A stretch of DNA of 62,776 nucleotides, counting the filler, from Stramenopiles sp. TOSAG23-3 (Eukaryota): assembly GCA_900128585.1 (NCBI GenBank). It is 8 parts of 8 records of this genome, joined end to end, with 100 filler letters (N's around TTAATTAATTAA, not from the genome) between each part and the next. Parts side by side here need not be neighbours in the genome. Positions count along the whole stretch, not along the records: positions 1 to 9,838 come from LT642874.1; positions 9,939 to 19,767 come from LT642875.1; positions 19,868 to 29,691 come from LT642876.1; positions 29,792 to 39,612 come from LT642877.1; positions 39,713 to 49,525 come from LT642878.1; positions 49,626 to 59,438 come from LT642879.1; positions 59,539 to 61,107 come from LT645680.1; positions 61,208 to 62,776 come from LT645681.1. One strand, 5' to 3'. Under the pieces are notes generated by a model that was not told the DNA's origin, did not search any database, and was given only the letters and a program-made list of their open reading frames with translations. Positions 4,408 through 61,700 of the stretch are shown piece after piece; position 1 is the stretch's first letter; each line of letters starts with the position of its first letter. The position numbers and the translations under genes were made by a program.

Positions 4408-4638
4408 ATTTAAAAACAAGAAAATTGGCTGTTATTTAAGTAATGCATTTAAAAAAAATGTGTTTTAAAAAAGACAAAAGGGTTGCCAGTTCAAGAACCA
4501 AACCCCCTCCGGTTGCCTCAAACAAAATTCGTGGGCTTTCCAAAGATCCTTCCCAATTTCTAGTCAAGGGACTTAAAATATGATAATCATTGTGTAAAAT
4601 TATTACTTAAATAACAGCCAATTTTCTTGTTTTTAAAT
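4408..4638. repeat. Two copies of the dispersed 3'-end element forming a perfect 37-bp inverted repeat between convergent genes
   Basis: 4408-4444 (ATTTAAAAACAAGAAAATTGGCTGTTATTTAAGTAAT) is the exact reverse complement of 4602-4638. Confidence 0.95.
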
Positions 4639-4736
4639 ATGTTAATTTAGTTTTTCAAAAAACTATCTTATTTTTGGATTTGTAATTTAATTTCTTTGTC
4701 CCTTCATTAAAACAGTAATACCGCGCTTGGGGGTAC

Positions 4737-5942
4737 CTAGAGAGGCCATCGGGGGTAAAAATGAGCCAAGCCCTTTCGCCCGGAGGATTCTGCGAATTGC
4801 TTTTGTCTCAGTATTGATTCCTCTGGAATTGGGGGCAACGTGTAATCGTTCGCCATCACCCTCTCCATGCCCGCCCACGCAACCATAACGCCATTGTCCG
4901 TGCATAGTTCGGGGGCAGGGAATATTATATTTTTTCCCAGCGCCCTTGCCGCCTCTTTCAAATTGCTACGGACGTACTTGTTCGCCGCGACCCCGCCACA
5001 CACAACAATCGACTGGAACTGCAGTTCGGCATCGTCTTTGCAGGCATGGACGGCATTCGCAAGCCTCTGCTTCAAATGCGCAACCGCGACGCGCTGGAAA
5101 GATGCCGCAACGTTGGCTTTCACCTGGCCATCGTTCAAGTCCAGCTTTTCCGAAGCATACTTGACGGCCGTTTTCAGCCCGGAAAAGGAAAAATTGCAGT
5201 CTGTTTTGCCTCGTTTCTGTAGGGGAATTGGAAAAGGAATAGACATTTCGTCGCCGGTAGCAGCCAGGGCTTCCAAAGCGGGACCGCCGCCGGTCTTTCC
5301 GTATCCAATCCCAAGGATTCGAGCAACCTTGTCAAACGCCTCCCCCGCTGCATCGTCCAAGGTCGTCCCCAGTCTGTGGAACTCCCCGATTCCTTTGGCA
5401 ACGAGCAGAATGCTGTGCCCGCCGCTTACCACCAAAGTTAAAAATGGAAACTCTGCACGCTCCTTTGCCTGAACACGGCTTACGAGAGCGTGGGCTTCCA
5501 AGTGGTTTATAGGGACCAATGGGGCGCTCAGGTCCGTTGCAAGAGCCGTTGCCCGCTCTACGCCGACCCGCAAGCACGGCGCAAGGCCCGGTCCTGCCGT
5601 CACCGCCACAGCATCTATCGAACCCATGTCTCGCCCCGTGCCTTCCAGCTGCAACTCAATTTCTTCAAAAACGCACTGGAAATTCTTTTCATGCTCCCTT
5701 GCTGCAAGGATAGGCACAATGCCGCCGTAATCTTGGTGCACGTCCCACTGGGACGACAGGGCCTGCGCAAGAATTTCCCCACGATCGTTCACAACTGCTA
5801 TGCCGGTGTCATCGCACGATGTTTCAATTCCTAATACTAACCGTTCGCCCTCCGTTTGTGCTACAGTGAATCCTCTTCTGCTGATGCAACGGGATAAATT
5901 CTTGTCAAAGAAACGACCTGCACCACGCGAAAACGTTTGCAT
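4737..5942 (-). CDS. OSGEPL1: Mitochondrial tRNA N6-threonylcarbamoyltransferase (TsaD/Qri7/OSGEPL1)
   Basis: LGIETSCDDT, GPGL, INHLEAH, VSGGHS, DDAAGEAFDK, FSFSGLKT, GGVAAN and CTDNGVMVAW motifs. Arg-rich N-terminus resembles a mitochondrial presequence. Confidence 0.95.
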   Translation of the reverse strand: MQTFSRGAGRFFDKNLSRCISRRGFTVAQTEGERLVLGIETSCDDTGIAVVNDRGEILAQALSSQWDVHQDYGGIVPILAAREHEKNFQCVFEEIELQLEGTGRDMGSIDAVAVTAGPGLAPCLRVGVERATALATDLSAPLVPINHLEAHALVSRVQAKERAEFPFLTLVVSGGHSILLVAKGIGEFHRLGTTLDDAAGEAFDKVARILGIGYGKTGGGPALEALAATGDEMSIPFPIPLQKRGKTDCNFSFSGLKTAVKYASEKLDLNDGQVKANVAASFQRVAVAHLKQRLANAVHACKDDAELQFQSIVVCGGVAANKYVRSNLKEAARALGKNIIFPAPELCTDNGVMVAWAGMERVMANDYTLPPIPEESILRQKQFAESSGRKGLAHFYPRWPL

Positions 5943-5982
5943 ATTTATCTACCTATGTAAACACGCGGACCACACAATGCAC

Positions 5983-6026
5983 CTGCCACGCAAACTCCTC
6001 CTTCTGCCACGCAAACTCCTCCTTCT
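5983..6026. repeat. 21-bp tandem duplication upstream of OSGEPL1
   Basis: CTGCCACGCAAACTCCTCCTT occurs twice in tandem. Confidence 0.9.
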
Positions 6027-6209
6027 CCCTGTTCTCACTACAACCTATTGCACTCCCCGTACCCCAACAGTTTTCCGTTTCGTTCTTTTCTCCTCCAGAT
6101 ATACAAATAATTACGAAAAAATCCACAGCAAGCTTAGCTGAAGCAGTATCCATTCAAATCTGAAAGAAGAGGAATCGTTGATTTGCTTTTTTCATATTAC
6201 TATTGTATC

Positions 6210-6430
6210 TTTCTCTCTCTCTCTCTCTCTTCATTCTTTTAATTCTCCTCAATTTCTTCTGTCCTCCTCCTCTTCTTTCTTCTTCTTTCTTTTCTTTTTT
6301 TCTTCTTTTTCTTTCTCTTCTTTCTCTTTCTCTTTCTCTTTCTCTTTCTCTTTCTCTTTCTCTTTCTCTTTCTCTTTCTCTTTCTCTTTCTCTTTCTCAT
6401 TATTATCTCTCTTCTCTCTCTCTCTCTCTT
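6210..6430. repeat. Pyrimidine microsatellite, (TCTTTC)n and (TC)n
   Basis: Directly visible; it explains the spurious SF/LS-repeat ORFs. Confidence 0.95.
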
Positions 6431-6679
6431 ATTATATCTTCTCCCTATTAAATGTCAGTCGAACCACCACCCAACCACAACCCCAATTTTAGAGACTAAT
6501 AATAATAATATTACTGTAAATAATTATAAAATAATGGAATTAAAATATATGAGATATTGGATATTGGGAGGCATACAATATTTATGTTTTTATGTTGATA
6601 AGTATTGAGCACCCGACAATAACTTGCGTTTTGTTCGCGTCGTGCGTACGAACTACCGGTAGTAGTAGGCATAGCAACT

Positions 6680-8755
6680 ATGCTTAATTTCTTTGAGAAA
6701 GTTGGGGAAGATGTTAAGGCAACGGTAGAAGGTAGGTCACGCACACGGTCTAGTACGAACAAAGGCACTCCGAAGAGAAAGTCTTCGCTTGGGACTGGGG
6801 GGAGGAAGGGGAGAGTTTCGGGCGGGGATGCTGGCGCTGGCGCTGGCACGCCTACATCTGCGGAGAAACGCCATGCTAGTAGTATACCGAAAGAGGAACT
6901 GATGCACTTGTCAATGAAGCTGTCCAAGCGACTGAAGACGTTGGAGGCGTCGCACTCGAAAGCGCTCGGCGCGCAAAACGTTTTGGAAAATAGATGCAGT
7001 TCCTTGGAGGAAATATTGTGCGAGCTTTTTGTCTGTGCTACAGTGTCGGACAAGTCTGTGGACGACATCAGGCTGATGCTGACGGACTATTTGAGCAAGC
7101 AACAGTTGGAAAATGGCGAGGCCGGGGCAGACGACAGTAGTGAAGCGACGAAAACGTATGGGGGGGAAGCACAGGCAGAGAGCGAGGTCGAGGGCGCGCC
7201 GGATAGCAACAACGGCAGCGGTGAGCGTGAAAAAACAGTCGCCGGGGGGGGGGAATCCACCGTAGAAAACAAGGGCGCGCTGCAGCAGGAACTTGCCCAT
7301 GCGAAAAAACAGGTGGAACGGCATGTGGGGGCGACGAAGGAGCTGCGCGAACAGATAAAGAAACTTCGGGCGTCACTGGCCGACAAACGGGGCGAAGAGA
7401 CGGATTTTCAGCAGAAACTGAATACCGCAGAGGAAAAGGTGGTGCTCTTGAAGTTGCGGCTGGACAAATTAAAAGCAGAGAAGGAGCAAGAGGGCAAGAT
7501 TCACTCAAAGCTGCTCGCCGATTACAAAAACATCTCCGGGGAGCTTGCCACTGCAAAGAGAAAGTACGAATCAGAAAGGAAGGCCGTGGGTGCAAAGTCG
7601 AAAGATGTTGAGGGTTTGCAGCGGCGCGTGAAATCTATAGAAGGGGAACTGAACGACAGCCAGCTCTTGTGTGCAGAAAAGACGTCGCTGATCGGCACCA
7701 TGCGGGAGAAAATGTCTCAACGTAACATACAGGCACAAGAGTCGAAACTGAGCGATGTCAGCCAGGAGGCGGCAGACCTGAGAACAGAAGTAAGCGCGAA
7801 ACAATCCGAATGCGAGTCGCTCAAACGTCGTTTGCAAGAAGCAAACAAGGCGGTCTCGGAGGCATTGAGGGAATCACAGACCCTACGGAACGAAAACGAC
7901 GAGGCGAAATCTCGAGATATAGAGGGAAAGTCGGTAGTGAAGCGGCTGCAAAGCAAATTGGGAATTGCCATCTCCAACTCGAAAGAATCGCAGCTGGAAG
8001 CAGAGGCAGCCAAGCTTGCCGAAGCCGAAATGGCGAAAAAGGTTGAAATTGCCAATGCCCAGTTAAATGCGCTTCGAGGCATGGTGGACGAGCTGACCGC
8101 GGAGAAGAAAACGGTGGAAGAGCGCGCGATTGCGTTAAGGAATGGGCTAGAAAGCGAGAAAGCGATGAAGGCTGGCGAGCTGGAAGAAGCACGCCATGCA
8201 ATGGACGTGCTGAAAACCACGAACGCCAAGGCGCTGGCGGACCAAGAGAGACAGCTGAAAGCAACGTTTCAGAAAGAAATGGAACGCACGAAGCTGGCCG
8301 CCCAGAAAAAGTCGTCGCAGGCCATACGCCTAGTTCAAGAGAAGGATTCTGAGCTGAGCTTGATGAAGAAACAGAACATGAGATTGAAAGACGAAGTAGA
8401 GTCGGGAAGGCCAGAAGAGCGGCTCATCCTGGAATACGCCGCGGACCAAGCCAGGCGCGAATCGCAGACCAGGCTTGTGATGAACGAGCTGGATTCATTG
8501 AAAGAAAAGCTGAAGGAACGCGAAGCTACTATACTCCGGCTGCAAAAGCAGGCAGCGTCCGCGGCCAGTCAGGGGGGGGGCGAGGGGGGGGGCTACGTTG
8601 CCCAGGGACCCACGGTGAATTTAATATACTTGAAGAATGTTATCGCTCAATTCATGTCGTTTCAAGAAGGGTCGTCGGAACGAATGCGACTCGTACCTGT
8701 GATTGCCACTATCTTAAGGGATATCAAGAAAATGCAACCATCGACGACGAAGTGA
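6680..8755 (+). CDS. GRIP-domain golgin (long coiled coil)
   Basis: About 500 aa of coiled coil ending in VNLIYLKNVIAQFM...RMRLVPVIATIL, the GRIP signature. Confidence 0.85.
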   Translation: MLNFFEKVGEDVKATVEGRSRTRSSTNKGTPKRKSSLGTGGRKGRVSGGDAGAGAGTPTSAEKRHASSIPKEELMHLSMKLSKRLKTLEASHSKALGAQNVLENRCSSLEEILCELFVCATVSDKSVDDIRLMLTDYLSKQQLENGEAGADDSSEATKTYGGEAQAESEVEGAPDSNNGSGEREKTVAGGGESTVENKGALQQELAHAKKQVERHVGATKELREQIKKLRASLADKRGEETDFQQKLNTAEEKVVLLKLRLDKLKAEKEQEGKIHSKLLADYKNISGELATAKRKYESERKAVGAKSKDVEGLQRRVKSIEGELNDSQLLCAEKTSLIGTMREKMSQRNIQAQESKLSDVSQEAADLRTEVSAKQSECESLKRRLQEANKAVSEALRESQTLRNENDEAKSRDIEGKSVVKRLQSKLGIAISNSKESQLEAEAAKLAEAEMAKKVEIANAQLNALRGMVDELTAEKKTVEERAIALRNGLESEKAMKAGELEEARHAMDVLKTTNAKALADQERQLKATFQKEMERTKLAAQKKSSQAIRLVQEKDSELSLMKKQNMRLKDEVESGRPEERLILEYAADQARRESQTRLVMNELDSLKEKLKEREATILRLQKQAASAASQGGGEGGGYVAQGPTVNLIYLKNVIAQFMSFQEGSSERMRLVPVIATILRDIKKMQPSTTK

Positions 8756-8886
8756 TATAGATGTCGAATGAGAGTGACCCTGAAGCTTAACTTAAAATTT
8801 CACGATGGTACTGGGAGTCTTTATATTTTATTTTATTATGTGATATATAAGAAAACAAATTAATATACTCGTAGAGTGTATTATAT

Positions 8887-9292
8887 GTATGAGGAAGCTA
8901 AATTTAATTACTTAAATAACAGCCAATTTTCTTGTTTTTATAGAGTGTAGTACTGCTTTATATAAGTAACCTTCTTTTCATCAAAAGAATAATTCAAACA
9001 AGACGAAAGTCAAAAAAATAACGGAGCACTGCATGCACAGCGGCAAGAAGGAAAAAAGGAAAATAAATAATTATATTATATCAAGAAAATTGGCTGTTAT
9101 TTAAGTAATTAAATTTAGCGTCCTCATACCCTCAAGTTTTTAATAAAGTATTTTAAATATAATATTATTATACAGACCTATTTATAATATTATATTAATT
9201 TTAATTATAATCTTGAGAGTCTTAAAAAAACATACTATATCATTAGTTTTTTTTGATACCTTAAGTAACAGCCAATTTTCTTGTTTTTAAAT
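8887..9292. repeat. Three copies of the dispersed element, including a 48-bp inverted pair
   Basis: 8887-8934 and 9082-9129 are reverse complements with one mismatch. A third copy lies at 9260-9292 on the minus strand. Confidence 0.9.
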
Positions 9293-10130: not shown

Positions 10131-10451
10131 ATGTCCAAGCAGAACAAATTGCTTTGCGTTTCGGTGGTCTTTTTGATACTGACAAGTTTGGTGCTTTCTC
10201 GCAGAGGGGAAGAAATAGTTGAGGAGCATGCACCGTTTACAATTGATTTGCCAAAATATGCCAAAGATCGAATCAACGGATTCTTAGAGGATCACCAAAG
10301 AAATGAGATTTTCAACCAGTACCGAGAACGGCTCAACAACGAGGAGGTGAACGACTTCAAAAATTCCATGGGCGAGGCAATGAGTGAGATGGAAGTCTCC
10401 ATGTCCGAAATGTTAGGGATTGAAAAGGAGAAGAAGAAGAAAAGGCTGTGA
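10131..10451 (+). CDS. Small secreted or membrane-anchored hypothetical protein
   Basis: N-terminal hydrophobic stretch (LLCVSVVFLILTSLVLS) and coding-like composition between AT-rich flanks. Confidence 0.65.
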   Translation: MSKQNKLLCVSVVFLILTSLVLSRRGEEIVEEHAPFTIDLPKYAKDRINGFLEDHQRNEIFNQYRERLNNEEVNDFKNSMGEAMSEMEVSMSEMLGIEKEKKKKRL

Positions 10452-10540: not shown

Positions 10541-10772
10541 ATTTAAAAACAAAAAATTTGGCTGTTATTTAAGTAATTGCTAAGTACGACGCAAAATTTA
10601 TTTTCTTCATATACCCCGCGAAAGTGAATATGCTCCTTTTTAAAGGTTTACGCTCCTTCGTATATACTGCGAACTTATCTGTGCTTCTGAGATTTTACCA
10701 ATCAATATACCCTTGTCACTAAGTCTCGACTATATATCATTCTCATGTGTACTCCCATGCATGATCCGGAAG
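10541..10772 (+). repeat. Long copy of the dispersed repeat family
   Basis: Core motif followed by AAGGTTTACG...ACTGCGAACTTATCT...CAATATACCCTTGTCACT...CATGCATGATCCG, all shared with 48640-49525. Confidence 0.88.
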
Positions 10773-24481: not shown

Positions 24482-24923
24482 ACCGGTTGCAATTCCAGCA
24501 AAAATGTTCCGTGTACAGTACCTGGTACCCGCTCTTTGAGCGCAGTGTCAAGCCAGATTTATTTTTTAATTTTATAAAGTTTTAAAAAAACATTATTATA
24601 TAGTATGCTTTAAGACTCTCGCTTTATATTTTAGTGGTTTATCATAATAAATAAAAAACATTTACCGGGGGGTTTGCGCCAGAAAGCACTAATCGAACCA
24701 ATGGTCGGTCCAATTCTAAGCTAATACTGTTATGGACTCTCGTAGCTTGTGTGGGTTCAATTTGAAACCCCCTGAAAACAAAATATTTTTAAAAACACGC
24801 GGTAATTTAAATCAGTTAACAAAAGTAAAAATGGTCCTTCGTAAACTTAAACACAAGACATGACACACAGATTTCTTGAGTTAAAAAATTTAAGTTTTGA
24901 GTGAGAGAAAAGCATCAATTTTA

Positions 24924-24955
24924 ATTACTTAAATAATCAGCCAATTTTTCGTTTT
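24924..24955 (-). repeat. Dispersed 3'-end element copy
   Basis: ATTACTTAAATAATCAGCCAATTTTTCGTTTT, about 48 nt after the stop at 25003. Confidence 0.85.
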
Positions 24956-25002
24956 CTAAGAGAGTATTTTTTTTAATTTACTACTGGATGCGCTGTGCGC
25001 GT

Positions 25003-34664: not shown

Positions 34665-34825
34665 TAGAGGGGTAGAGAGAATGCGTACAACTATAAGTTT
34701 TACGTACACTAAATCTCCTAACCCAATTGAAGCAAACTTTTTGGTTTCATATATATTTTATCATATTGTAGCTATATATAAGAAAACGAAATGAACAAAT
34801 AATGTAGACTATACTATATAATATT

Positions 34826-35247
34826 TAGAAGAAAAAAAGAAGAAGAAAAAAGAAGAAGAAGAAGAAGAAGAAGAAGAAGAAGAAGAAGAAGAAGAAGAAG
34901 AAGAAGAAGAAGAAGGAAGAAGAAGAAGAAGAAGAAGAAGAAGAAGAAGAAAGAAAAAGGAAGAAGAAGAAGAAGAAGAAGAAGAAGAAAGAAGAAGAAA
35001 GAGGAAGGAAGAAGAAGAAGAAGAAGAAGAAGAAGGAAGAAGGAAGAAGAAGAAGAAGAAGAAGAAGAAGAAGGAAAAAAAAAGAAGAAGAAGAAGAAGA
35101 AGAAGAAGAAGGAAAAAAAAAGAAGAAGAAGGAAAAAAAAAGAAGAAGAAATAAAGAGAAGAAAAAAAAAGAAGAAGAAGAAGAAGAAGAAGAAGAACGA
35201 AGGAAGCAAGCAAGAGAGAAAAGAAAAAAACGAGAAAAAAAAAGAAG
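34826..35247. repeat. (GAA)n-rich purine microsatellite
   Basis: About 420 nt of almost pure A/G; source of the poly-F/L/S ORFs. Confidence 0.97.
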
Positions 35248-35428
35248 GTACCGCACTGTATTCGTTTAAAATTAGAATCGTTGCGTACAGTTCGTTGTAG
35301 ATTGGTACAAAGTCTCCGTTGCTCTTTCATTTTTGCAATGCGTATTCTGCGAGTTACAGCCAAGGAACAGCCATTATTATACAAATTACTTTTGTACAGC
35401 GGACGAACAACGACGGTCAACTCCCGAT

Positions 35429-35874: not shown

Positions 35875-36047
35875 NNNNNNNNNNNNNNNNNNNNNNNNNN
35901 NNNNNNNNNNNNNNNNNNNNNNNNNNNNNNNNNNNNNNNNNNNNNNNNNNNNNNNNNNNNNNNNNNNNNNNNNNNNNNNNNNNNNNNNNNNNNNNNNNNN
36001 NNNNNNNNNNNNNNNNNNNNNNNNNNNNNNNNNNNNNNNNNNNNNNN
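35875..36047. other. Scaffold gap (173 N, no linker)
   Basis: N run without the TTAATTAATTAA core. Confidence 0.98.
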
Positions 36048-36210
36048 TTTCCTTTTATATTATTTACGAAGAAAAGAAAAGCATTTTTAAATAATATATA
36101 ATAATATATTCATTTAACGCGCGCGTACATTGTTAATATTTTTTTTCAGAGACACAGAAAACTATTTTCGTAAAAAATGAAGCTAATAAAAACTATGTTT
36201 TCAGTATAAT

Positions 36211-36278
36211 AGAGATCAGTTCGCAGTACATTAATTTTAATTAACATACTTAAATAACACCCAATTTTCTTGTTTTTA
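36211..36278 (-). repeat. Dispersed element copy
   Basis: Core motif at 36247-36278 plus the AGTTCGCAGTACAT module. Confidence 0.85.
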
Positions 36279-36326
36279 TATTTTATAGACTTTTTAGGGA
36301 CGCCGTTCGGCAAGATGGACACAAGT

Positions 36327-37499: not shown

Positions 37500-37586
37500 G
37501 CGGCGGGGCTCGTCGTGACTTGGTTGTGAGTAGTAAGAAGTAGTATGATATTATAGTCTCGTCTAATATATACACAGCACTGTGTG

Positions 37587-37722
37587 GAGAAGAAAAAGAA
37601 GAAGAAAGAAGAAGATGATAGAAGAAGAAAGAAGAAGAAAGAAGAAGAAAGAAGAAGAAAGAAGAAGAAAGAAGAAGAAAGAAGAAGAAAGAAGAAGAGA
37701 AAGAAGAAGAAAGAAGAAGAAG
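37587..37722. repeat. (GAAGAAGAAA)n minisatellite
   Basis: 10-bp unit, perfect over 37621-37690. Confidence 0.95.
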
Positions 37723-37844
37723 TGTTGTATCATTATACTACGGACTATGTTTAATTAATTAAAACTTGGAGTACAAGGCTACGAGGAATACATGAAAATG
37801 ATATATATTATAAAAACCAAATTATAATACACATATATTATATG

Positions 37845-37915
37845 AGAGATAAGTTCGCAGTACATGACCTGAAGATGTTTAAAAATTACTTAAATAACAG
37901 CCAATTTTTTGTTTT
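37845..37915 (-). repeat. Dispersed element copy abutting the truncated transporter
   Basis: Core motif at 37885-37915 plus GAGATAAGTTCGCAGTACATGA. Confidence 0.87.
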
Positions 37916-37936
37916 GTTGTTCCTTCTCTTTCTATA

Positions 37937-41629: not shown

Positions 41630-43261
41630 ATGGTAAGGACACGCCGTGGCAAAACCAGCGGTGCGGGACCAACTGGTACCGCGGGGGGAGAGGGGGGCAA
41701 GCGAGGGTCAAAGACGACGAGAGCTGTCCGGTCTCGTTTCCCAGCAGGGCGAAAGTCAAAAAACCTGCCACTTCCCCCGGCACTGCTGTCCAGTGATGAA
41801 GATGAGGAGGGGTATGCTGGTGCTACGACAATGACACCATCTAGCCAACCGTCGAGCCTCGTGGAGGGCGTGGGGGACGAGCTTGCGGAAGCAATGCTAG
41901 GGGATGCAGACACGAGCTTGAGCGACTCTGGGGATCGTGGTACTGACGGCGCGTCATCCAGTTCTGCCAACGGGGGGAAACGCAAGAAGAGACAGGCGGA
42001 TCCAATGGCGGAAAGTTTGGAGCGCGGAGGGACGGCATACTTCCACGCGCATAACAAACGCACCCGGTCTACGGTGACGTCGGACCAAACCATGGAGTCT
42101 TTGAACTTGCCAGGCGACGCCGAGGCACGAGACATCTATTCCCAGTTGCCAGTGAGAAATTTAGAAGACAAAGCAGTGCTGTTCAGATATTACTACTCCC
42201 AGTTTCCGCGCTGGCGACTCTGGCTAAGGCATGGCTTCAACATGATGTTCTTCGGTTTCGGATCGAAGAAGGGTCTCCTAGAGTCGTTTGTTGACTTTTT
42301 GGATGATGGGACGCCGGATGGAGCAGGCGAAGTTGTGGTCGTGAACGGATTTTCCCCCCATTTATCGGTGAAAGAAATTTTGAACGCGTTAGCAAAGCAC
42401 GTCGCGAAAATGCCAATGAACTCGGTCGCATTCAACACGGACATGGACCGCGCCCGTGCGATCGCGAAAATCGTCAACGCTCCATTCCCAGCCGCATTCG
42501 GTAGCCGTGGAGACTTCTCCACGAAGGCGGGGTCGTCCTCCGGGTCGCTCGCCCGGGCGAGTGGGGTGGGGTCAACAGCAAAAAGCGGGATCAGCGCAGG
42601 AACGTCTGGTGGGGATGGTAATGGGGGGGATGGTGTGGTGAGTCGGAGACAGCGCCGGGTCCTTGGCAACCAAGCAAGCACTGCTGCGGGCGATAGGCGT
42701 CCGTGCCGACGGTTGTACCTGGTTATCCACAATTTAGACGGGCCGTCCCTCCGATCCCCCAAAACACAAGAAATACTGAGTTTCTTGGCCGAAGGGCGCG
42801 GGATTCACATTATTGCATCCATCGACCACTTGAATGCCAGTTTCCTATGGGATCAGCGCCTTTTGCAACGATTTAACTGGTTGTGGAACGATACCACTAC
42901 GTACCTTCCATACGACAAAGAGTCCGAGTATGAAGAGGCAATCGTTGGTGGGGCGGGGGCGAATGCCGCCCGGGGCGCAGCGTTTGTTCTGAAAAGTCTT
43001 ACGCCGAACCATAGAGATATACTACGTTTGCTTGCACAGTTTCAACTAGACGAACCAACAAAGAAGGGGCTGGACTTTCACGAATTTTATACCCGTTGTA
43101 GGAACGAAATGTTGGTCAATAGTGACCAGACCTTGAGGCATCATTTGACGGAGTTTATGGACCACGCGTTGGTGAGCACTACACGGGGGGCCGATGGGAA
43201 AGAGTATTTTTTCGTCAGTTTGAAAGAAGACGTGATTCGAAATGTTATTTTGCCAAAATAA
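41630..43261 (+). CDS. ORC2: Origin recognition complex subunit 2
   Basis: FPRW..WL..GFN...GFGSKK.LL..F, VVVNGF.P, LVIHNLDG..LR, IIASIDHLNA and LRHHLTEFMDH. Confidence 0.95.
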   Translation: MVRTRRGKTSGAGPTGTAGGEGGKRGSKTTRAVRSRFPAGRKSKNLPLPPALLSSDEDEEGYAGATTMTPSSQPSSLVEGVGDELAEAMLGDADTSLSDSGDRGTDGASSSSANGGKRKKRQADPMAESLERGGTAYFHAHNKRTRSTVTSDQTMESLNLPGDAEARDIYSQLPVRNLEDKAVLFRYYYSQFPRWRLWLRHGFNMMFFGFGSKKGLLESFVDFLDDGTPDGAGEVVVVNGFSPHLSVKEILNALAKHVAKMPMNSVAFNTDMDRARAIAKIVNAPFPAAFGSRGDFSTKAGSSSGSLARASGVGSTAKSGISAGTSGGDGNGGDGVVSRRQRRVLGNQASTAAGDRRPCRRLYLVIHNLDGPSLRSPKTQEILSFLAEGRGIHIIASIDHLNASFLWDQRLLQRFNWLWNDTTTYLPYDKESEYEEAIVGGAGANAARGAAFVLKSLTPNHRDILRLLAQFQLDEPTKKGLDFHEFYTRCRNEMLVNSDQTLRHHLTEFMDHALVSTTRGADGKEYFFVSLKEDVIRNVILPK

Positions 43262-43300
43262 AATAGTAAAGTAAAGAGTAATAGTTAAGATCTAAGTACT

Positions 43301-44200
43301 TTAAACACAAATTGCTGTTATTTAGGCCCAAACTAAAATTAATGAAAAACGATACATATGTGCTGTTTACAATTGCATTTAAAAAAAAATATCTTGCGCG
43401 TGAACTCTTATTACGGTAAAATATACTGGTAGTAACTCTGTTCATTTGGAATATAACTACAGTTCTTGACCGCACTTCCTAGACTCCTAGGCGTAGTCTA
43501 GGAAGTGCGGTCAAGAACTGTAATTCCTTAGTGATTGACAACTAACGAAATTAAAAAATCCATTTTAAAGCCTATACTATAATATATAATTTGTTTTTTT
43601 AAATATGAAATGAGAGTCTTAATAAAGCATACTGCTATATAATTTTTTTTTTACAAATTTCGTAAGACTAATAAGAGTTCTTACGGATGTGTCAATCGTC
43701 GTCTATCATACTTACATATTTTAACCAAATTATAGTATGCTTCAAGACTCTCAACTCTGGCTCATTCCTTGTGTGATCTTCAAAGCAGCGGCGTAATTGT
43801 TTAATTTGATTTTTTAATTTCGTTTCGTTGGTCGTCAATCACTGAGAGGAATTATTTATATTCCAATGAGAAGAATTACTACCGAGAGTGATAAAATTTC
43901 TTTTCTTGTTAAAGGTGATCTGTACTCAACAAACCGACCCAATTTCCAGTCAAAGCCCCTGATAATTTCATCCACCGTTGGAGACTCATGTGAGTAGATC
44001 ACTTCTTCGCCGAACTCATCATATTTAGTTTCAACTCAAGAAAATTGGCTGTTATTTAAGTAATTAAAATTAATTTACTGCGAACTGAAAACTGAAATCT
44101 AGAATGGACTCCATGAACGATCCAAATCGGTAGCTGGATTAGCAATGCTGTCAAATGAACCGTAATCAACTTCCTCATCCGATATCTCACTCGTAGGTGA
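43301..44200. repeat. Composite cluster of dispersed-repeat fragments, including an inverted duplication and coding remnants
   Basis: Core copies at 43301 and 44037. 43427-43570 is an inverted copy of 43800-43885. 43909-44020 matches 61570-61680, and 44108-44192 matches 49108-49193. Confidence 0.8.
43460..43520. mobile_element. 61-bp Tc1/mariner-type mini-MITE with TA target duplication
   Basis: TA + CAGTTCTTGACCGCACTTCCTAGACT + 9-nt loop + perfect reverse complement + TA. Absent from the paralogous repeat copy near 43850. Confidence 0.75.
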
Positions 44201-44578
44201 CTCAATCCTTGTACGCTTTCCCAAGCAGCGGCGTAATAGTTTTAAAGGTGCTCGTTGTCTGTCATTATTTAGTTTATGATTCGCAGTTTATTTTACATTT
44301 CTTTCGATATTGTGACGATGAAATACGGACATTACGCAAATATTTTAGGGATGTCAGAATCGTACTTGAGGGCGTAATAATAGCGTCTTACATGTACTCG
44401 TAATTACTTAGATTTCTAATGTGTGTAATTTGTAAACCCGAAAAAAAAAAAGAGTTGGTGCACCGAAAAAATTAGCACATGCAAAATGAAAATGCGATTC
44501 TAAAAAAAATGAGGAGAATGTTGTTGAACTTCATCAAGTAAACTTTAATCTTGAACCTTCAACAACTCCCAGACCGTT

Positions 44579-45196
44579 TCAGTAGTCTTCAAGGTCCATG
44601 CCCCAACCGTTAGTACGAAGCTGCCGCTCGGTATTAAATTTACCCGATGCACCGAGGTCTGTTTTTTCCCCATTTTCCCCAACTCCTAAACGCTCCATCT
44701 GCTCCTTTGTGTACACCCAAGCTGTCCAAGTCCCCATGTTCTTGGAACCGTGGGGCATTTCTATATCTTCTCGTAGCCATATCGGGCGGTGGTCCGTTCT
44801 GCCTAATAGCGTGAGCCGACGATAATTTTCCAACGAAGAATATCGCTGGCCGTCAAAAAGCCGTCGTTCGCCGTCCAGGTGGTCAAACTCATCTTCTTCG
44901 GGATTTGAATTTTCCCCGTTTTCGTCAACTCCTAAACGCTCCATCTGCTCTTTCGTGTACACCCACGCTGTCCAAGTCCCCATGTTTTTGGTCCCGCGAG
45001 GCTTTTCAATTTCCCCACGCAGCCATTTCGGACGAAGGTCTTTTCCACCAATTAGATTCAAACGACGATACCCTCTCAAGTTCCTTACGCCAAAGGTGTA
45101 TTCCTCAAAGTCTTCATCCCCGCCAACAGAAAACCCAGTGGTGCATATACAAAGTCCACCAACGAAGACGGCAGCTATCGATAGCGCACGACTCAT
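44579..45196 (-). CDS. Secreted protein with two tandem ~55-aa repeats
   Basis: Signal peptide, then two RRLxLxGxxDxRPxWLRxxIExPxGxKNMGTWTAWVYTKEQMERLGVxENGE units. Confidence 0.8.
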   Translation of the reverse strand: MSRALSIAAVFVGGLCICTTGFSVGGDEDFEEYTFGVRNLRGYRRLNLIGGKDLRPKWLRGEIEKPRGTKNMGTWTAWVYTKEQMERLGVDENGENSNPEEDEFDHLDGERRLFDGQRYSSLENYRRLTLLGRTDHRPIWLREDIEMPHGSKNMGTWTAWVYTKEQMERLGVGENGEKTDLGASGKFNTERQLRTNGWGMDLEDY

Positions 45197-46001
45197 TAAA
45201 AAGTAAAGTTCTTAGTTTGCAACGGACGAAAATTACAACAAGTGCTGAAACGTAAAAAATGTCGATTGAACAGAGCCGTTCACGCTTCAATCAACTTTCT
45301 AAAGTGGCGGGTAACATGCAACAGTTTCTAAGAGGCGAAACAGTCGTGATATACGCGACGTCCGAACGTTGCTAATACTTTTTTGCCGCTTGTACTTTGT
45401 ACTAGCAAACTACGAGTACTGCACTACCTGCATTTTGTTGTTGTGGTGCGTGTATTTTTGTGTTTTATTTTGATGGTGATGTTGTGACGTTGTCTTAATT
45501 ACGTAGTCCTATGAACTTCTTCAAATGAAACAAAATGCTGGCAGAAGAAAAAAAATGTGCTGAAATCATTCATCATCTCACTGTTAAGTTAAAATTAGGG
45601 TATAATTTAAATTATTGGACCAATAATTCCTTAAATAAATAAATATATTTTCTTGTTTTTGTTCTTCTTCCTTCCTCCTTCCTCTCTCGCTCTCTCGTCG
45701 ACGACCTCGTATGTGGATAGGGATAGACCCGAATGAACAACAAAACTCCGGTGTTTGTTCTAAGAACAACAACGTTTTCTCCAGAGATTGCTTTTACCAC
45801 CATTGGTATATCATTCCTTGGTATTCAGTATACTGTATTTACCTAATACGGCGCGGTATTATTTACCAACAAGAAACGAAAAAAACAGTATACAAGTGCT
45901 TGAACTAAACATAGTGGTAGGAAGTAAAATCTTTCACACGACGGAGACAGTCGGACGACGAACCATTACTTCAGTGAAGTGTAGCAAGCATTTCAATCGA
46001 T

Positions 46002-48589: not shown

Positions 48590-49525
48590 CGCGTTTTAAT
48601 TTATAGAAAAAGTGAAAATTAAGTGAACAGCACTTTTGTCCATTACAGGTTTACGTTCCTTCATGTACTGCGAACTTATCTCTGTTCCTGTGATTTTACT
48701 AATCAATATACCCTTGTCACTTAGTCTTGACTATCTAATGGATAAAAAAACCTAAAATTCAGTTTATCTAAAAACCAATTTACACTTTACACTTAAAAAC
48801 AAAAAATTGGCTGTTATTTAAAAGCAATTAAAATTTATCGTCTTTTCATGTACTGCGAAAATGAATCTGCTCCTTTTGTCCATTAAATAAAGGTTTACGT
48901 TCCTTCATGTACTGCGAACTTAGCTCTGCTCTTGTGGCTTTACTAAAAACAAATTATACATAGTATGTTTTAATAAGTCAAAAAAGAAAAGAAAAAAGAA
49001 GGTAAAACCGTTCAAGAACCCAAACTCTCCCTTGTAATAAATATAATTTGTTTTTTTTACTAATAAATATACCCTTGTCACTTAGTCTTGACTATCATTC
49101 CCATGTGTACTCCATGCATGATCCGAATCGGTAGGTGGATTTGCGTCGATGGCAAATGACCCGTAGGCAACTTCCTCATTTGATTGTCTCACTAAATTTT
49201 TAAACCCAGCCATTATTTAAAAAAAAATAATTTGCTGTTATCTACAATGTATAGGTAATTTAAAATTTATCTTCTTCATGTACCGCGAATAACTGTAAAC
49301 CTGCTTTTCTGCCCAGTGAAGTTTTGCTTCTCCTTCATGTACTGCGAATTTATCTCTGCTCCTGTGATTTTCTTTATCAACAAAGCCATTATTTTGTTTT
49401 AAATTTTTTAGATATAAACTTAAAACAAGAAAATTGGCTGTTATTTAAGTAATTAAAATGAATGTACTGCGAAGTGAACTCTAAATTGCGAACTTATCTT
49501 TGCTCTTGTGGTTTTACTAATCGAT
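48590..49525 (+). repeat. Tandem cluster of degenerate dispersed-repeat copies
   Basis: CATGTACYGCGAA recurs at least six times. Core motif at 48793 and 49420; GTTCAAGAACCCAAAC module at ~49010. Confidence 0.88.
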
Positions 49526-49642: not shown

Positions 49643-51487
49643 ATGAATGAAAAATACGAGGTAAAAGCGAGGGCCATGGAGATGGAGACCAATTTCAACA
49701 ATAAGTGTGCCACTATGCAGGAGAACATTCAGCAGAAGGAGCAGGCCTTTGCATCGGAAAAGCAACAAATTATCGATGCTTACGAGGAAAAAGCAATAAA
49801 GGCAAAAAAAGAAATGGAAAGCGAAATTTCTGTTTTGAAAGAAATGCTAGATTCAAATGCAGCTATTGCATCCTTCGCTCTGGAACAGAAATTAACAGAT
49901 GTGGAGTGTACCCTGAAAGCAAAATTTGAGTCGGAGAAGGAGGAGCTGGTATCGCTGTTTGCATTAGAAAAAGTAGTATTTGCCACAGAGCAAGTTGAAA
50001 AATGCAAAGCTGAGAACAAGTGCAGTATTGACACGATTGCATCCACATTTGAGGAAGAAAAAATGAAGATGTTAGACGATGCCTTCAAAAAGGTACATGA
50101 AAAAGAAGTTGAAATGAAACAAAAAATGGAGGAGCTGGAAAAATCCTTTCAAACAGAAAAGTCGAGCATTCAAGCGGAGAACAAGCAACGTGTCGAAAAT
50201 GAGACAAGCACTTTGCAAAAGCAATTGAAGGAAGTATCCGACAAATTGAAAAGTGCAAAAGAAGAGGCATCATCAGAACGTGAGAAGGTAACGTTGCTTC
50301 ACGAGGAGGAGATCACAAACTTAAAGCACGCGCACCATGCACAGCTGATCGAAAGCCAAGAGAGTGCCAAACATGCAAATAAAGACACTGTTGCTGAAAT
50401 AGCAGCGTTAAAGGCAACACACGAATCTAAAATGCTACAGCAGAAAAACAAGTTTGAAGCCGAAATGCAAATTATGGCTCAGTGCAATGAAGAAGACGCA
50501 GAGTATATTGTCACTTTACAGCAAGAAATTGCATCAAAAAATCAAGAAATTTCCGAATCAAAAACGGCCGAAGCTGAATATATGACACTTGCAACTGGAT
50601 TCGAAGTTGAAGCGAGGAACAATCAGGTTAAGTGTGGGGAACTAGAAGGCGGCATAGTTTTGAAAGAGAAGGAAATAAGTTCATTAAAGATTGAGATTGC
50701 TGAAAAGATCTCAGAAGTATCCAACCTGGAAAGCGCAGTTGAGTCTTTGAAAACAAATGAACAGGAAAACAAAGAATCTGCGGAAAAGGAGCGGTCGACT
50801 CTCACGAAGAAAATTGAAGAGCTTCAAAGCGCCATCATTACAGAAACGGAAGCATCCAAAGCCAAAAAAAAATTGGTCACAAGTCTGAGAAAGAAAATTG
50901 GTGAAATCAATGAAACGTGTAAGACCATGGGGGCAGAAAACGAACAATTAAAAACTAAATTGGTAGAAGATCAAGAGCAGCAAGAGAAGTTCAGAGAGAA
51001 GTTTAAGGAGCACTGCGTTGCCCAACTGGATCGTGCCAAACAGACATATGAAAAGCTAAAAATTAAAACCACTGTGCTTGTAGAGGAGATAAAGCAAGCG
51101 CGCGCATCAATGGAAGAAAAAGACAATGCGCTGAAAGGAGCCGTTGCAGACCACGAACAAAAATTGTCCGAAATGGCTGCCGAGATGAACAGAATTATAG
51201 AAGAAGACAAAAATCTTAAAGCTAACTTGTTTGAAAAGGGCGAAAAAATCACAGAGCTAATGGAAACAAACGCGAAACTCAAAACGCTTTGTAGCGAAAT
51301 GATGGTAGACTTGGACAAAGCAAAGCAAGAATCGGACGAAGCAATTCAACAATTGGGCGAAGCAAAGCAAGAATTGGACGAAGCAAAGAAAGAATTGGAC
51401 GAAGCAAAAAATTCAGACGAAGAATTGGACAAAGCAAAAAAGTCAGACGAAGAATTGGACGAAGCAAAAAAGTCAGACGAAGAATGA
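49643..51487 (+). CDS. Long coiled-coil protein, possibly TACC-like C-terminus (probably 5'-truncated)
   Basis: E/K-rich heptads. KEHCVAQLDRA and LKTLCSEMMVDL resemble the end of a TACC domain. Confidence 0.75.
   Translation: MNEKYEVKARAMEMETNFNNKCATMQENIQQKEQAFASEKQQIIDAYEEKAIKAKKEMESEISVLKEMLDSNAAIASFALEQKLTDVECTLKAKFESEKEELVSLFALEKVVFATEQVEKCKAENKCSIDTIASTFEEEKMKMLDDAFKKVHEKEVEMKQKMEELEKSFQTEKSSIQAENKQRVENETSTLQKQLKEVSDKLKSAKEEASSEREKVTLLHEEEITNLKHAHHAQLIESQESAKHANKDTVAEIAALKATHESKMLQQKNKFEAEMQIMAQCNEEDAEYIVTLQQEIASKNQEISESKTAEAEYMTLATGFEVEARNNQVKCGELEGGIVLKEKEISSLKIEIAEKISEVSNLESAVESLKTNEQENKESAEKERSTLTKKIEELQSAIITETEASKAKKKLVTSLRKKIGEINETCKTMGAENEQLKTKLVEDQEQQEKFREKFKEHCVAQLDRAKQTYEKLKIKTTVLVEEIKQARASMEEKDNALKGAVADHEQKLSEMAAEMNRIIEEDKNLKANLFEKGEKITELMETNAKLKTLCSEMMVDLDKAKQESDEAIQQLGEAKQELDEAKKELDEAKNSDEELDKAKKSDEELDEAKKSDEE
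51309..51484 (+). repeat. Coding tandem repeats of 21 bp (ELDEAKQ) and 30 bp (SDEELDxAKK)
   Basis: GAATTGGACGAAGCAAA units run up to the stop codon. Confidence 0.88.
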
Positions 51488-51728: not shown

Positions 51729-51882
51729 GAGGAGTTTGGGTTCTTGAACGGTTTTACCTTCTTTTTGTGTCATACTATATAATTAGTGTTTTTTAATTTG
51801 TGTTCATTAGTTTTTTTATATGAGAGTATGCTGCTTTAAGACAATCTTAAATAAGAATTAACAGCCAATTTTCTTGTTTTTA
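51729..51882 (-). repeat. Dispersed element modules
   Basis: GAGTTTGGGTTCTTGAACGGTTTTACCTTC is the reverse complement of ~48998-49027. Core motif at 51859-51882. Confidence 0.85.
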
Positions 51883-51932
51883 GAATTAACAATTAAGTAC
51901 ATACGAATTAAGTACAAAATAATTACTCTCTC

Positions 51933-59438: not shown

Positions 59439-59538
59439 NNNNNNNNNNNNNNNNNNNNNNNNNNNNNNNNNNNNNNNNNNNNTTAATTAATTAANNNNNN
59501 NNNNNNNNNNNNNNNNNNNNNNNNNNNNNNNNNNNNNN
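59439..59538. other. Artificial contig linker
   Basis: N44-TTAATTAATTAA-N44. Confidence 0.99.
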
Positions 59539-61004
59539 CCTGAATCGCGGTCACCTCCGAACCGACTTCCCCGGTCGCCTCCACCGTAACCTGAATCACG
59601 GCCTCCTCCAAAACGGCCTCCGCGATCGCCTCCCCTATCGCCATAACGACTACTTCCCCTTCCTGAATCGCGATCATCTCCGTAGCGGCTTCCCCTGTCC
59701 CCGCCAAAGCCTGAACTAGGTGCGTCGCCACGACCGTACCGATCCCCACGATCTCCTCGACCACCTCGATCTCCTCCGTCGCGAGAACGGTCTCCGTAGT
59801 TGTCGTTCGAACGACCGCCAAAGCGGCTTTGTGAGCTACCGCCTTGGCCTTCACCTCGGCCTTGGCCTTCTGAGCGTCTGCCCTCGTTCCCGTACGACCG
59901 TTTTTGCCACCTTCCGCCGTCTTCTTCGTTTTGCTTTGCCTCCTCCTCGGCTTTTTCTGCGGCCTCGCGTTCTTGCTCTTTGCGCAGCGTTTCTTCTTGC
60001 AACAATTTCGCTTCAAGGGCGCGCTTTTTTGCCCTTTCCAGCTTCGCGCGCCTCTTCTTGAGTTGGGCAAACAGGGTTGCCTTTTCAAGGTCCGCGTCGA
60101 GCCGTTCTTGCCGCCTCCCATACAAATGGTTGACGTAGGCTTCCCCGTGGGCATCTGCGGCGGTCAACTTCTTCCGGCTGGCGTTGTCCTTTTCCCAAGT
60201 TGCCTTGTGTTGACTACGGCGCTGGGAGTCTCGGTCGAGAAAGTAGGATTTCTCGGCATCTTTCATTTCAGCGACCCTGCTCAAAAGTTTTGGGCGCTCC
60301 TCGTCTCGCAAGGCGCGGCACAAATAATCAACCTTCCTGCTCTGTTCGCGCATCTTGGAGGCTTGCTTCCGGTGCTCTTTGATCGCCGTCTCTTGGCGGA
60401 TCTTGAGCAGCTCCTCGCCAGTCATGTTCTGCAGCTTTTGGTCGGAAATGTTGATGCCAGCTTCTTTTGCAGCGGCTCTCTTCATCTTCATGTCCTCTCG
60501 AAGCTTCAGCCGTTCTGCCAGTTCCTTCTCGCGCCGGTTCCGCTCCGCTTCTAAGCGCAGCTTCTCGTTCTCGCGGCGTTCGATCTCTTCGCGCTTGCGC
60601 TTGTCCTCCGCCTGCTTCGCTTCTTCCAGCTGGCGCTTTTCTTGAAGCTGCTTCATTGCTTCGATCTCGCCCTTTCTCAAAATGGTGTTCTTGTTTTCCT
60701 GTTCGCGAGAGCCAAAAATTGCCTTGGTGAAGCTGCTCTTTGCCCCGCTGTCGGTGGTATCGGATCCTTGCAAGCGCCGGGCCACGCGCGTCAAATTTCG
60801 AGAGAGTAGGACCAGCTGGGACCTCATGCGGGTTGTCTCCATCGTGTCGCTATCAAACCTAAGGCATTTGTTCTGGTGGTCGAACCGGACAGACAAATGG
60901 CGCGCGCGCACCGCCTGGATCAAAATTTTCTCAACCTGGTGAAATTCTAGCCCGACACCGGTGATGCTCTTCTTAAATTTCTCAATGGACATACTTTTGT
61001 AGAT
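59539..61004 (-). CDS. EIF3A: Translation initiation factor 3 subunit A, C-terminal exon (partial at both ends)
   Basis: End of the PCI domain (IYKSMSI...EK.LI.AV....L.VR.DH....LRF), MRSQL, KVDYLCRALR.EE.P.L and a G/D/R-rich repeat tail. Confidence 0.88.
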
Positions 61005-61107
61005 CTGAAAAGGGTGAAAGAAAAAAAGCGGGGTGTTAGTATCGAGATACGCCAAACAGCAAAGCAGAAGTTTCTTGAAATGTATTTATCTCCCCTGCTT
61101 CACGGAA
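61005..61107 (-). other. Spliceosomal intron 3' part with TACTAAC branch point
   Basis: Minus strand reads TACTAAC (61041-61035), a pyrimidine tract, then TTTCAG|ATC, exactly where eIF3a similarity begins. Confidence 0.8.
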
Positions 61108-61207
61108 NNNNNNNNNNNNNNNNNNNNNNNNNNNNNNNNNNNNNNNNNNNNTTAATTAATTAANNNNNNNNNNNNNNNNNNNNNNNNNNNNNNNNNNNNN
61201 NNNNNNN
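61108..61207. other. Artificial contig linker
   Basis: N44-TTAATTAATTAA-N44. Confidence 0.99.
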
Positions 61208-61306
61208 CAGGCACTTGGAATCAGCAGCGACGTGAAACATCACCATTTCAACAGTCCGAAGAAGAGCGGCAGTAGGAAAACCCCCGGTTCCGTTGGGTTT
61301 GCTTGA
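61208..61306 (+). CDS. Probable 3' end of an unidentified gene
   Basis: GC-rich open frame QALGISSDVK...GSVGFA*, followed by AT-rich DNA and the 3'-end element. Confidence 0.35.
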   Translation, partial: QALGISSDVKHHHFNSPKKSGSRKTPGSVGFA

Positions 61307-61335
61307 AAGATGAAAATGGTTAAAAAAGGTATCAG

Positions 61336-61700
61336 AAACAAAAAATTGGCTGCTATTTAGTTCAAACTAATTAAAAACGTTTAGATTGGGTACCGTTAAA
61401 TAATTGAAATACTGGGTTAAAAAAACATATTTTTTATCTTATATAGTATACTACTCTTTAAGACTCTCATTAATTTATATTTAAAAATCAATTACGATTT
61501 CTGTTCCAAACCTAAACCTAGCTTGTTTTTATTTCTCTTTCGAAATGAAGTCCCCCCTCCCCCTCTTTGTAAAGGTGATCTGTATACAAAAAATCGATTC
61601 TTCTCCCAGTCAAAGTTCCTGAAAGTTTCATCCTTCTTGGAGACTCTTGCGAGTAGATCACTTCTTCGCCGAACCCACCAGAGTCACTTGGAGAATCAAT
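61336..61700. repeat. Dispersed element modules with coding remnant
   Basis: Core motif at 61336-61360, TTTAAGACTCTC module at ~61460, and 61570-61680 homologous to 43909-44020. Confidence 0.8.

Follow-up and report, generated by a model that had tools for sequence, protein, structure and literature searches.

A recurrent intergenic motif of Stramenopiles sp. TOSAG23-3 is probably the tail of a high-copy, mostly truncated retroposon family

The window and its motif copies

The window analyzed here is a 62,776-nucleotide (nt) stretch of the Stramenopiles sp. TOSAG23-3 genome assembly (GCA_900128585.1), in which N runs with a TTAATTAATTAA linker connect eight pieces. The long open reading frames (ORFs) of the window are eukaryotic housekeeping and signalling genes, among them ORC2, Kae1/TsaD, ParcG, a photolyase, ankyrin proteins, and a cyclic-nucleotide-gated channel. 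The genes are tightly packed with few interruptions. A short motif recurs between them, and the original prediction described it as an element of about 35 nt that stands just after stop codons in the sense orientation. The analysis indicates that the motif is probably the antisense DNA copy of the 3'-terminal ~32-37 nt of a high-copy, mostly truncated retroposon family. With the same confidence, it is read as the tail of an ordinary genomic parasite, not as a gene-termination signal.

The occurrence of the motif in the window was determined by motif scans and by repeat families. The 32-mer, with up to 3 mismatches, gave 9 matches compared with 0.00 expected from 100 shuffles. The 16-mer core, also with up to 3 mismatches, gave 14 matches, 13 of which were at positions named in the original prediction; the 14th (41526-) has no flanking A-run or CAAG and was taken as chance. 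The repeat families D6 and D7 hold 15 copies, including 24918-, 51843-, and the previously unlisted 49214+. The copy 43301+ was detected by the 16-mer core scan only. The core scan and the repeat families thus confirm all 15 predicted positions on 7 of the 8 contigs and add one copy, 49214+. Four copies are clearly degenerate (24918-, 43301+, 51843-, and 61336+). As predicted, no window copy lies inside a long ORF or in a divergent gap. The motif is not a free-standing element of about 35 nt; it is the constant end of inserts that range from 22 to more than 800 nt. The copies are given below, with their target-site duplications (TSDs) where these were found. The constant end is called the tail, and the sequence joined to it is called the body.

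4417..4445, plus strand: tail-only insert of 29 nt (CAAG...GTAATG), exact 32-mer; TSD of 10 nt, CATTTAAAAA, at 4407-4416 and 4446-4455
4596..4637, minus strand: tail copy, exact 32-mer; the stop of the Kae1/TsaD gene, on the minus strand, is 104 nt away
8881..8940, minus strand: 60-nt insert, tail plus TAATTAAATTTAGCTTCCTCATAC..., 16-mer core match; TSD of 9 nt, TACACTCTA, at 8941-8949 and 8872-8880
9073..9125, plus strand: tail and about 20 nt of type-A body, left end diverged to ATATCAAG; found by 32-mer, core, D6, and D13
9250..9291, minus strand: tail copy with 3 mismatches; the stop at 9362 is 75 nt away
10541..10770, plus strand: long composite of tail, repeated GTACTGCGAAC modules, and the start of a coding remnant (…ACTCCCATGCATGATCCGG); found by self-BLAST
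24918..24959, minus strand: degenerate tail copy with 71% identity to the reference copy; the stop at 25003 is 44 nt away; D7
36205..36280, minus strand: tail and type-B body (GTACTGCGAACTGATCTC); the stop at 36327 is 47 nt away; 36210-36286 aligns to 49483-49412
37807..37920, minus strand: tail and type-B body; the stop at 37937 is 17 nt away; core match and self-BLAST
43301..44021, plus strand: old long copy, degenerate tail at 43301-43326; core match
44032..44265, plus strand: 234-nt insert of tail, short 3' untranslated region (UTR), and C-terminal coding remnant; TSD of 10 nt, TATTTAGTTT, at 44022-44031 and 44266-44275
48790..49125, plus strand: long composite of tail, GTACTGCGAAC modules, nested insert, and coding remnant; repeat families and self-BLAST
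49214..49400, plus strand: diverged copy absent from the original prediction, tail 65% identical; D6, and 48793-48973 aligns to 49217-49402
49417..49525, plus strand: exact 32-mer and type-B body, extending past the end of the piece
51843..51884, minus strand: degenerate tail copy with 76% identity; the ParcG gene stops 49 nt away, at 51933; D7
61329..61890, plus strand: old long copy, degenerate tail at 61329-61365; D6/D7 repeat families and a match to the long copy L015

A wider sample was collected from metagenome contigs that contain the exact 25-mer, giving at least 128 loci, referred to below as the metagenome loci. These loci carry 131 motif copies, or 126 once the copies with near-duplicate flanks (5 of 131, by flank identity) were dropped. 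One of them, L055, is 100% identical to window positions 42540-44090 across 1551 nt. This indicates that the public metagenome assemblies that were searched include DNA of the same organism.

Several window copies showed further structure. Inspection of the flanks of 4596..4637 revealed no clear TSD, and a fragment of a second tail family (…TAGTATGTTTTT TTAAGACTCTCA) follows 9250..9291. The composite at 10541..10770 is homologous to 48793-49125 by self-BLAST, with 10543-10701 matching 48793-48946 and 10693-10768 matching 49055-49125. The old copy at 43301..44021 contains a minus-strand coding remnant at 43856-44035 (DEFGEEVIYSHESP...TRKEILSL) and is broken by other repeat pieces and by a hairpin at 43455-43525; its region 43800-44020 is 91% identical to L015. 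The coding remnant of 44032..44265 runs at 44099-44287 on the minus strand and reads ...SEISDEEVDYGS...SWSPF before the stop. The copy at 61329..61890 has minus-strand coding remnants at 61518-61742 and a tblastn match to residue 112 of the related protein P0003 at 61890. Tandem and inverted partial copies occur, and 49214..49400 stands in tandem with the neighbouring copies.

Two side observations belong to these copies. The hairpin inside the old 43301 copy is a 31-nt near-perfect inverted repeat with a 9-nt loop (AACTACAGTTCTTGACCGCACTTCCTAGACT...), and among the metagenome loci it was found only in L055, which is the same place. A module of about 60-75 nt (…CATGTACTGCGAACTTATCTCTGCTCCTGTGATTTTACTAATCAATATACCCTTGTCACTTAGTCTTGACTAT) is repeated in loose tandem with tail copies at 48620-49525 and 10620-10740 (D10, D15, and D18).

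Constant tail, variable end, and target-site duplications

Alignment and self-BLAST showed that the similarity between window copies often extends to one side only, which is rightward in the orientation of the motif. The right side contains repeated GTACTGCGAAC... modules (D10, D15, and D18), followed by a stretch that codes on the opposite strand. Across the copies of the metagenome loci, the left end is constant, with an A-run followed by CAAGAAAATTGGCTGTTATTTAAGTAAT, and the right end varies from copy to copy. The extent of contiguous similarity was measured for 124 copies: 7 were below 45 nt, 26 were 45-60 nt, 41 were 60-100 nt, 32 were 100-200 nt, and 18 were 200-400 nt. When the long copy L015 was used as a probe and matches were counted per 50-nt bin, the number fell from 186 to 47, about 20, 13, 6, and then 2-5 out to about 850 nt, beyond which it was 0. 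This fall in copy number with distance from the tail is the gradient expected of copies that keep one end fixed and are truncated from the opposite end.

At least four upstream sequences, named types A, A', B, and C, are attached to the tail. Among the 131 copies, 52 were type-A-like, 42 were type-B/C-like, and 37 were short or other. A tail common to several bodies suggests that it is the recognition site needed by the copying enzyme. In type-A bodies, an A9/T9 run is found where two body modules join, and this junction suggests a chimeric origin through template switching. The 3' UTR of type A also holds CCCTAATCCTAAC, a telomere-repeat-like string located about 60-75 nt right of the motif (for example in L014, L018, and L085).

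A second repeat terminus, (A)nCAAATTATATAGTATGTTTTAAGACTCTCA, was observed in the window at 24600-24621 (+), 43732-43753 (+), 9215-9245, and 61440-61470. Two of the window matches have 2 mismatches, and the terminus is exact in 8 metagenome loci (L004, L013, L038, L040, L045, L050, L078, and L109). It begins with an A-run plus CAA like the main motif, and it often adjoins or nests with copies of the main family. It may be a second retroposon tail that uses the same machinery.

The original prediction had named a search for TSDs among the ways to check it, and this search was performed. Exact direct repeats within 150 nt were scored in 117 usable copies, with 100 flank permutations and shifted flanks as controls. 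Direct repeats of at least 11 nt were found in 26 of the 117 copies, compared with a permuted mean of 1.29 (maximum 4) and with 2 in the shifted-flank control. Repeats of at least 12 nt were found in 21 copies, compared with 0.6 in the control. The TSDs are variable, with lengths from 7 to 18 nt; examples are TTGTAAGAAGTTAA in L026, AAATTGTTATTA in L046, ATTACGTTAATA in L089, TGTATTCATTTTA in L091, and CAGATCATAAAAA in L099. Three window inserts are bracketed by TSDs, with lengths of 29 nt (4413+), 60 nt (8907-), and 234 nt (44033+). The suggestion that the motif is the terminus of a mobile element is therefore backed by the TSDs, the variable far end, and the copy-number gradient.

The left flank also follows a pattern. 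It is T-rich at positions -7/-6 and carries A at -4 to -1 in 101-112 of the 117 copies. The A-run is part of the TSD in several copies, which fits priming by microhomology.

The TSDs bear directly on whether the motif is instead a terminal inverted repeat (TIR) of a miniature inverted-repeat transposable element or another DNA transposon, with 4413+/4602- and 9078+/9256- as the two ends of elements of about 200 nt. Two inward-facing pairs in the window, about 190-210 nt apart, and the palindromic flank TTTAAA/TTAA/TA would agree with this. However, 4413+ is a 29-nt solo insertion with its own 10-nt TSD, which refutes the idea for solo-TSD copies. Most copies in the metagenome loci are single-ended, the TSDs range from 7 to 18 nt, and the far end differs from copy to copy and carries no inverted tail. 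Such an origin is highly improbable. Variable TSDs, single-ended conservation, and solo TSDs together rule out a TIR-type DNA transposon and a Helitron.

Other element classes were compared with the same features. The folding z-scores of the motif were -0.4, -0.4, and +1.9, showing no structure beyond that of shuffled sequence, and Rfam gave 0 matches, hammerhead included, in the window and in 20 loci. A Helitron, which would show no TSD, A/T insertion, and a 3' hairpin with CTRR, was rejected on the presence of TSDs and the absence of a tail hairpin (z -0.4). A short interspersed element (SINE), which would show a Pol III head and no ORF, was rejected on the lack of Rfam matches and on the conserved ORF in the body. 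As to Penelope-like features, the Rfam search gave no hammerhead, and neither reverse transcriptase (RT) nor GIY-YIG was found among the recovered copies, which are not full-length.

The constant 3' end, the variable 5' truncation, the variable TSDs, and the A-rich nick site, which pairs with a U-rich RNA end, form the signature of target-primed reverse transcription (TPRT). These four features are observed in the copies; from them we infer an RT, its recognition of the tail, and the nick. In the proposed mechanism, an endonuclease would nick AT-rich DNA just past an A-run, in the order T-rich, AAAA, nick. The freed 3' end would pair with the terminal U-run of the element RNA. An RT that recognizes the tail would then copy the RNA from its 3' end, and would mostly halt or be cut short within 30-350 nt. 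A staggered second nick would yield the duplication.

Encoded protein and comparison with known elements

ORFs in the bodies were found on the strand opposite to the motif, with their stop codons nearest the motif. Examples are L015 at 1400-1825 and 1874-2245, both on the minus strand, and the window at 44099-44287 on the minus strand. The ORF stop is located about 60-100 nt from the tail. The body codes opposite to the motif strand, and the motif is thus the antisense reading of the 3' transcript end of the element. On the sense strand, the element ends with ...ATTACTTAAATAACAGCCAATTTTCTTG and then 4-6 T.

One search returned the related proteins P0001-P0004. An exhaustive HMMER search then identified 117 database relatives of the element protein, all of them fragments of at most 318 amino acids (aa). 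Further fragments lengthen the N-terminus and give proteins of up to 465 aa, and no longer form was found in the databases searched. Pfam PF02338 (OTU) matched at E 0.002-0.02, below the cut-off, and the PDB profile search for OTU gave E 0.07-0.7. The model of the central domain had a mean predicted local distance difference test (pLDDT) score of 65.6. Its best 50 PDB fold matches were all OTU domains, the best one with E 2e-3 and probability 1.0, and the template modelling scores were 0.33-0.58. The motifs DGHCLF and HYDWL were recognized by eye. The element protein is predicted from the model to carry an OTU-like cysteine protease fold.

The region upstream of this domain appears Ulp1-like by eye, and the Atlas clusters closest to it are Peptidase_C48, with a score of 0.86 that counts only as a lead. 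It gave no Pfam match and no PDB profile match, and its model (pLDDT 37) was unusable. A Cys-like motif precedes a His-like motif here; the motif order of Ulp1 differs, as its Cys-like motif does not stand before the His-like one. Perhaps the element protein also has a Ulp1-like domain.

Several observations weigh against the retroposon reading. The sense-strand end is CTTG(T)4-6, and no poly(A), A-rich, or short-tandem-repeat end was observed, whereas the tails of most described non-LTR (non-long-terminal-repeat) elements are poly(A) or microsatellite. In the motif orientation, any T-run ahead of the A-run is accounted for by the TSD. No RVT domain was found by Pfam in 149 flanking ORFs (53 + 96), and no endonuclease of the long interspersed element (LINE) type was found. 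The pieces recovered contain no full-length or autonomous element, and the proteins of the family reach at most 465 aa and have no RT. A clear TSD was present in only 26-39 of 117 copies, the remainder being old, nested, or in AT-rich flanks. Comparison of L010 with L062 and of L119 gave no clean pair of filled and empty sites. The metagenome loci were picked by the exact 25-mer and are biased to young copies; some of them are near-duplicates from two assemblies, of which the 5 of 131 noted above were removed by flank identity. Finally, the gene-proximal copies of the window are co-oriented with the nearest gene in ten cases, with one exception (8907-).

Three of these points were followed further. 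An Exo_endo_phos ORF in L028 was considered as the endonuclease of the element; it is located on the motif strand, has no RT, and was read as a host gene. At the NPRL3 locus, L010 and L062 are 99.7% identical over the motif and 1.5 kb rightward, and their left flanks are unrelated; the difference reflects either an additional insertion that is polymorphic or a join made at the repeat during assembly. L119 is ambiguous, a nested insertion and a tandem duplication being equally compatible with it. With regard to the missing RT, the family may depend on an autonomous partner. Full-length copies may be rare and missing from the assemblies, or else the family may be non-autonomous.

The 5'-truncated copies of non-LTR (LINE-type) elements arise by TPRT, as for L1 with its target TTTT/AA. 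The family described here resembles them in the constant 3' end, the variable 5' truncation, the variable TSDs, the copy-number gradient anchored at the 3' end, and the AT-rich nick site, which shares microhomology with the 3' end of the RNA. It differs from them in having an oligo-U end and no poly(A), and no RT or endonuclease ORF was recovered. Its copies are also extremely short (most with less than 100 nt of contiguous similarity) and confined to convergent spacers. Non-autonomous retroposons can share the 3' tail of a "stringent" LINE partner, as in SINE/LINE pairs. The single conserved tail of about 32 nt on several upstream sequences (A, A', B, and C) is similar to this arrangement. 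Unlike SINEs, the family has no tRNA, 5S, or 7SL head, no Rfam match, a long protein-coding region, and no detected tail structure.

PMC2836005 describes OTU and Ulp1 cysteine-protease domains in Ginger1, Mutator, and Helitron elements, and PMC4640811 describes an N-terminal Ulp1-like domain in NeSL/Utopia non-LTR elements. The ORF of the present family resembles these elements in its predicted OTU-like fold and in motifs that look Ulp1-like (by eye and by the Atlas lead at 0.86). Ginger1 and Mutator differ from the present family by their TIRs and fixed TSDs, and Helitrons by the lack of a TSD. In NeSL/Utopia, one ORF encodes the protease followed by RT and a restriction-like endonuclease, whereas no RT follows the protease in the pieces recovered here. 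A full-text literature search with the motif strings gave no relevant match, and titles and abstracts gave no relevant literature on retrotransposons in convergent or compact genomes.

Gene neighbourhood and the location of copies

ORFs of at least 150 codons were used as gene proxies for the neighbour analysis of the metagenome loci. The left neighbour was co-oriented with its stop proximal at 53 loci and opposed at 13 (binomial p 7e-7). The right neighbour was on the opposite strand with its stop proximal at 54 loci, compared with 8 (binomial p 2e-9). Both neighbours were available at 51 loci, which comprised 36 convergent, 8 (-,-), 4 (+,+), and 3 divergent arrangements. The neighbours on both sides are varied host genes. 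Cases in L009, L037, and L041 that appeared to lie inside an ORF were rejected as spurious antisense frames. In the window, the 8 convergent spacers (4245 nt) held 10 copies, the 5 divergent spacers (3851 nt) none, and the 12 tandem spacers (5117 nt) a single one; a further five copies, located at piece ends, are unclassifiable by spacer type. The single copy in a tandem (-,-) spacer is 37807..37920. No copy was present in 1 of the 8 convergent and 11 of the 12 tandem window spacers.

These arrangements also bear on a core promoter, in which an upstream element, the TATA-like TATTTAAG, and, 15-28 nt further on, an initiator at GTACTGCGAA would drive downstream genes or small RNAs. The TATA-like octamer and the conserved GTACTGCGAAC 15-28 nt downstream in a subset of copies speak for it. 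However, a gene start stands downstream in only 8 of 62 metagenome loci, and 36 of 51 gaps are convergent. In addition, GTACTGCGAAC is a repeated body module and not an initiator at a fixed distance, Rfam gave no RNA gene downstream, and TSDs are present. A promoter function is hardly credible.

The original prediction had placed ten copies after stops. Eight of these stops (4323, 4737, 9362, 25003, 36327, 37937, 43261, and 51933) close ORFs of at least 130 codons and are located 17-104 nt from the motif. The stop at 10451 closes a 107-aa ORF, and the stop at 61306 closes a 32-codon frame from the piece edge and is unverifiable. In the metagenome loci, the distance to the stop ranges from -2 to more than 1000 nt. 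A copy between convergent genes always has one neighbour on its own strand and the other neighbour on the opposite strand. The sense orientation to the upstream gene holds in the window, but most copies lie between convergent genes and are also antisense to their other neighbour, and for 8881..8940 (8907-) the nearer gene, with its stop at 8755, is the antisense one. After the element body was subtracted, the co-oriented gene was nearer at 20 convergent metagenome loci and the other gene at 16 (Wilcoxon p=0.23). In tandem spacers, 8 copies were antisense and 4 were sense. Copies of opposite orientation also occur within one spacer (4413+/4602- and 8907-/9078+/9256-). The fixed orientation claimed earlier is not supported by these counts, though a modest true orientation bias could still exist. 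The apparent rule of "sense after a stop codon" is a by-product of the position of the copies in convergent spacers.

A rival reading takes the motif as a selected, non-mobile host cis-element for 3'-end processing or termination, or as a 3'-UTR RNA motif. Its position downstream of stops and never in coding sequence agrees with such a role, as does the identical 25-mer at no fewer than 128 loci. This role is largely refuted by the TSDs that bracket individual copies, and the variable-length inserts run into a coding body on the opposite strand. No structure above shuffles was detected (z about -0.4) and no Rfam match was obtained. The distance to the stop is too scattered (-2 to more than 1000 nt), and the orientation counts of 20 vs 16 and 4 vs 8 do not favour it either. 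Single spacers also hold copies of both orientations, some of them with TSDs of their own. Many genes have no copy, as the empty convergent (1 of 8) and tandem (11 of 12) spacers of the window illustrate. A long 3'-processing, terminator, or UTR RNA element is accordingly very improbable.

That the family targets gene 3' ends, as the original prediction put it, stands as a pattern of location, with 36 of 51 metagenome loci convergent; either active targeting or survival of harmless insertions may be its cause. In the targeting version, a retroposon would be truly directed to the sequence that follows genes, such as A-rich stretches of polyadenylation type on the coding strand, which would give a real bias towards the orientation of the gene, and some copies may now serve as terminators or poly(A) sites. 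About 11 window copies are gene-proximal, and 10 of them face the way of the nearest gene at 17-104 nt from the stop. The distances to the left neighbour cluster at 40-160 nt in 33 of 53 metagenome loci, and without correction the co-oriented gene was nearer in 25 cases and the other gene in 11. The left flank consensus (T-rich, then AAAA) resembles 3'-flank sequence, and the motif with its usual continuation includes ATTAAA in the gene sense. However, the bias drops to the corrected 20 vs 16 after body subtraction, antisense copies exceed sense copies in tandem spacers, 8907- is antisense to the nearer gene, and both orientations occur within one spacer. True targeting is unlikely. A further variant is that a protease-coding retroposon (OTU-like and perhaps also Ulp1-like) without its own RT would be copied in trans through its unstructured 32-nt, oligo-U-ended tail, would be actively directed to convergent termination zones, and would leave stubs that now give poly(A) or termination signals to a compact marine eukaryote. 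This variant is quite unlikely.

For the retroposon family read as an ordinary parasite, the likeliest explanation of its location is that selection removes insertions near promoters and in genes, and the copies that survive are almost all in convergent 3'-3' spacers. Preferential insertion into A/T-rich 3' flanks may contribute to this bias. Dictyostelium TRE elements, which adjoin tRNA genes, are safe-haven retroelements of a compact genome. The present family is similar in being a high-copy retroelement limited to harmless intergenic sites in a gene-dense genome. It differs in that the haven is the convergent 3'-3' spacer and not the tRNA gene, and both targeting and selection are possible.

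Other features of the window were also observed. The convergent spacer that contains 43301+ and 44033+ is closed by a 210-aa ORF without Pfam match at 44579-45211 (-). This ORF has an internal 172-nt duplication, 44653-44824 and 44899-45070, with 78% identity. A 614-aa ORF without Pfam match at 49643-51487 has in-frame tandem repeats of 21 nt and 30 nt near its C-terminus, at 51311-51485 (D5/D20). Long GAA/CTT-type and CT-rich microsatellites are located at 34780-35260, 37580-37720, and 6260-6430, and one such microsatellite abuts the internal assembly gap at 35875-36047.

The retroposon reading explains a conspicuous intergenic motif as decayed mobile DNA and would prevent its annotation as a terminator or a regulatory RNA. 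For transposon specialists, the points of interest are that one tail occurs on several bodies, that it ends in oligo-U, and that the body encodes a putative protease and no RT. The family would show clearly how a high-copy retroelement can be tolerated in a gene-dense eukaryote, as very short stubs that are found almost only between the 3' ends of genes.

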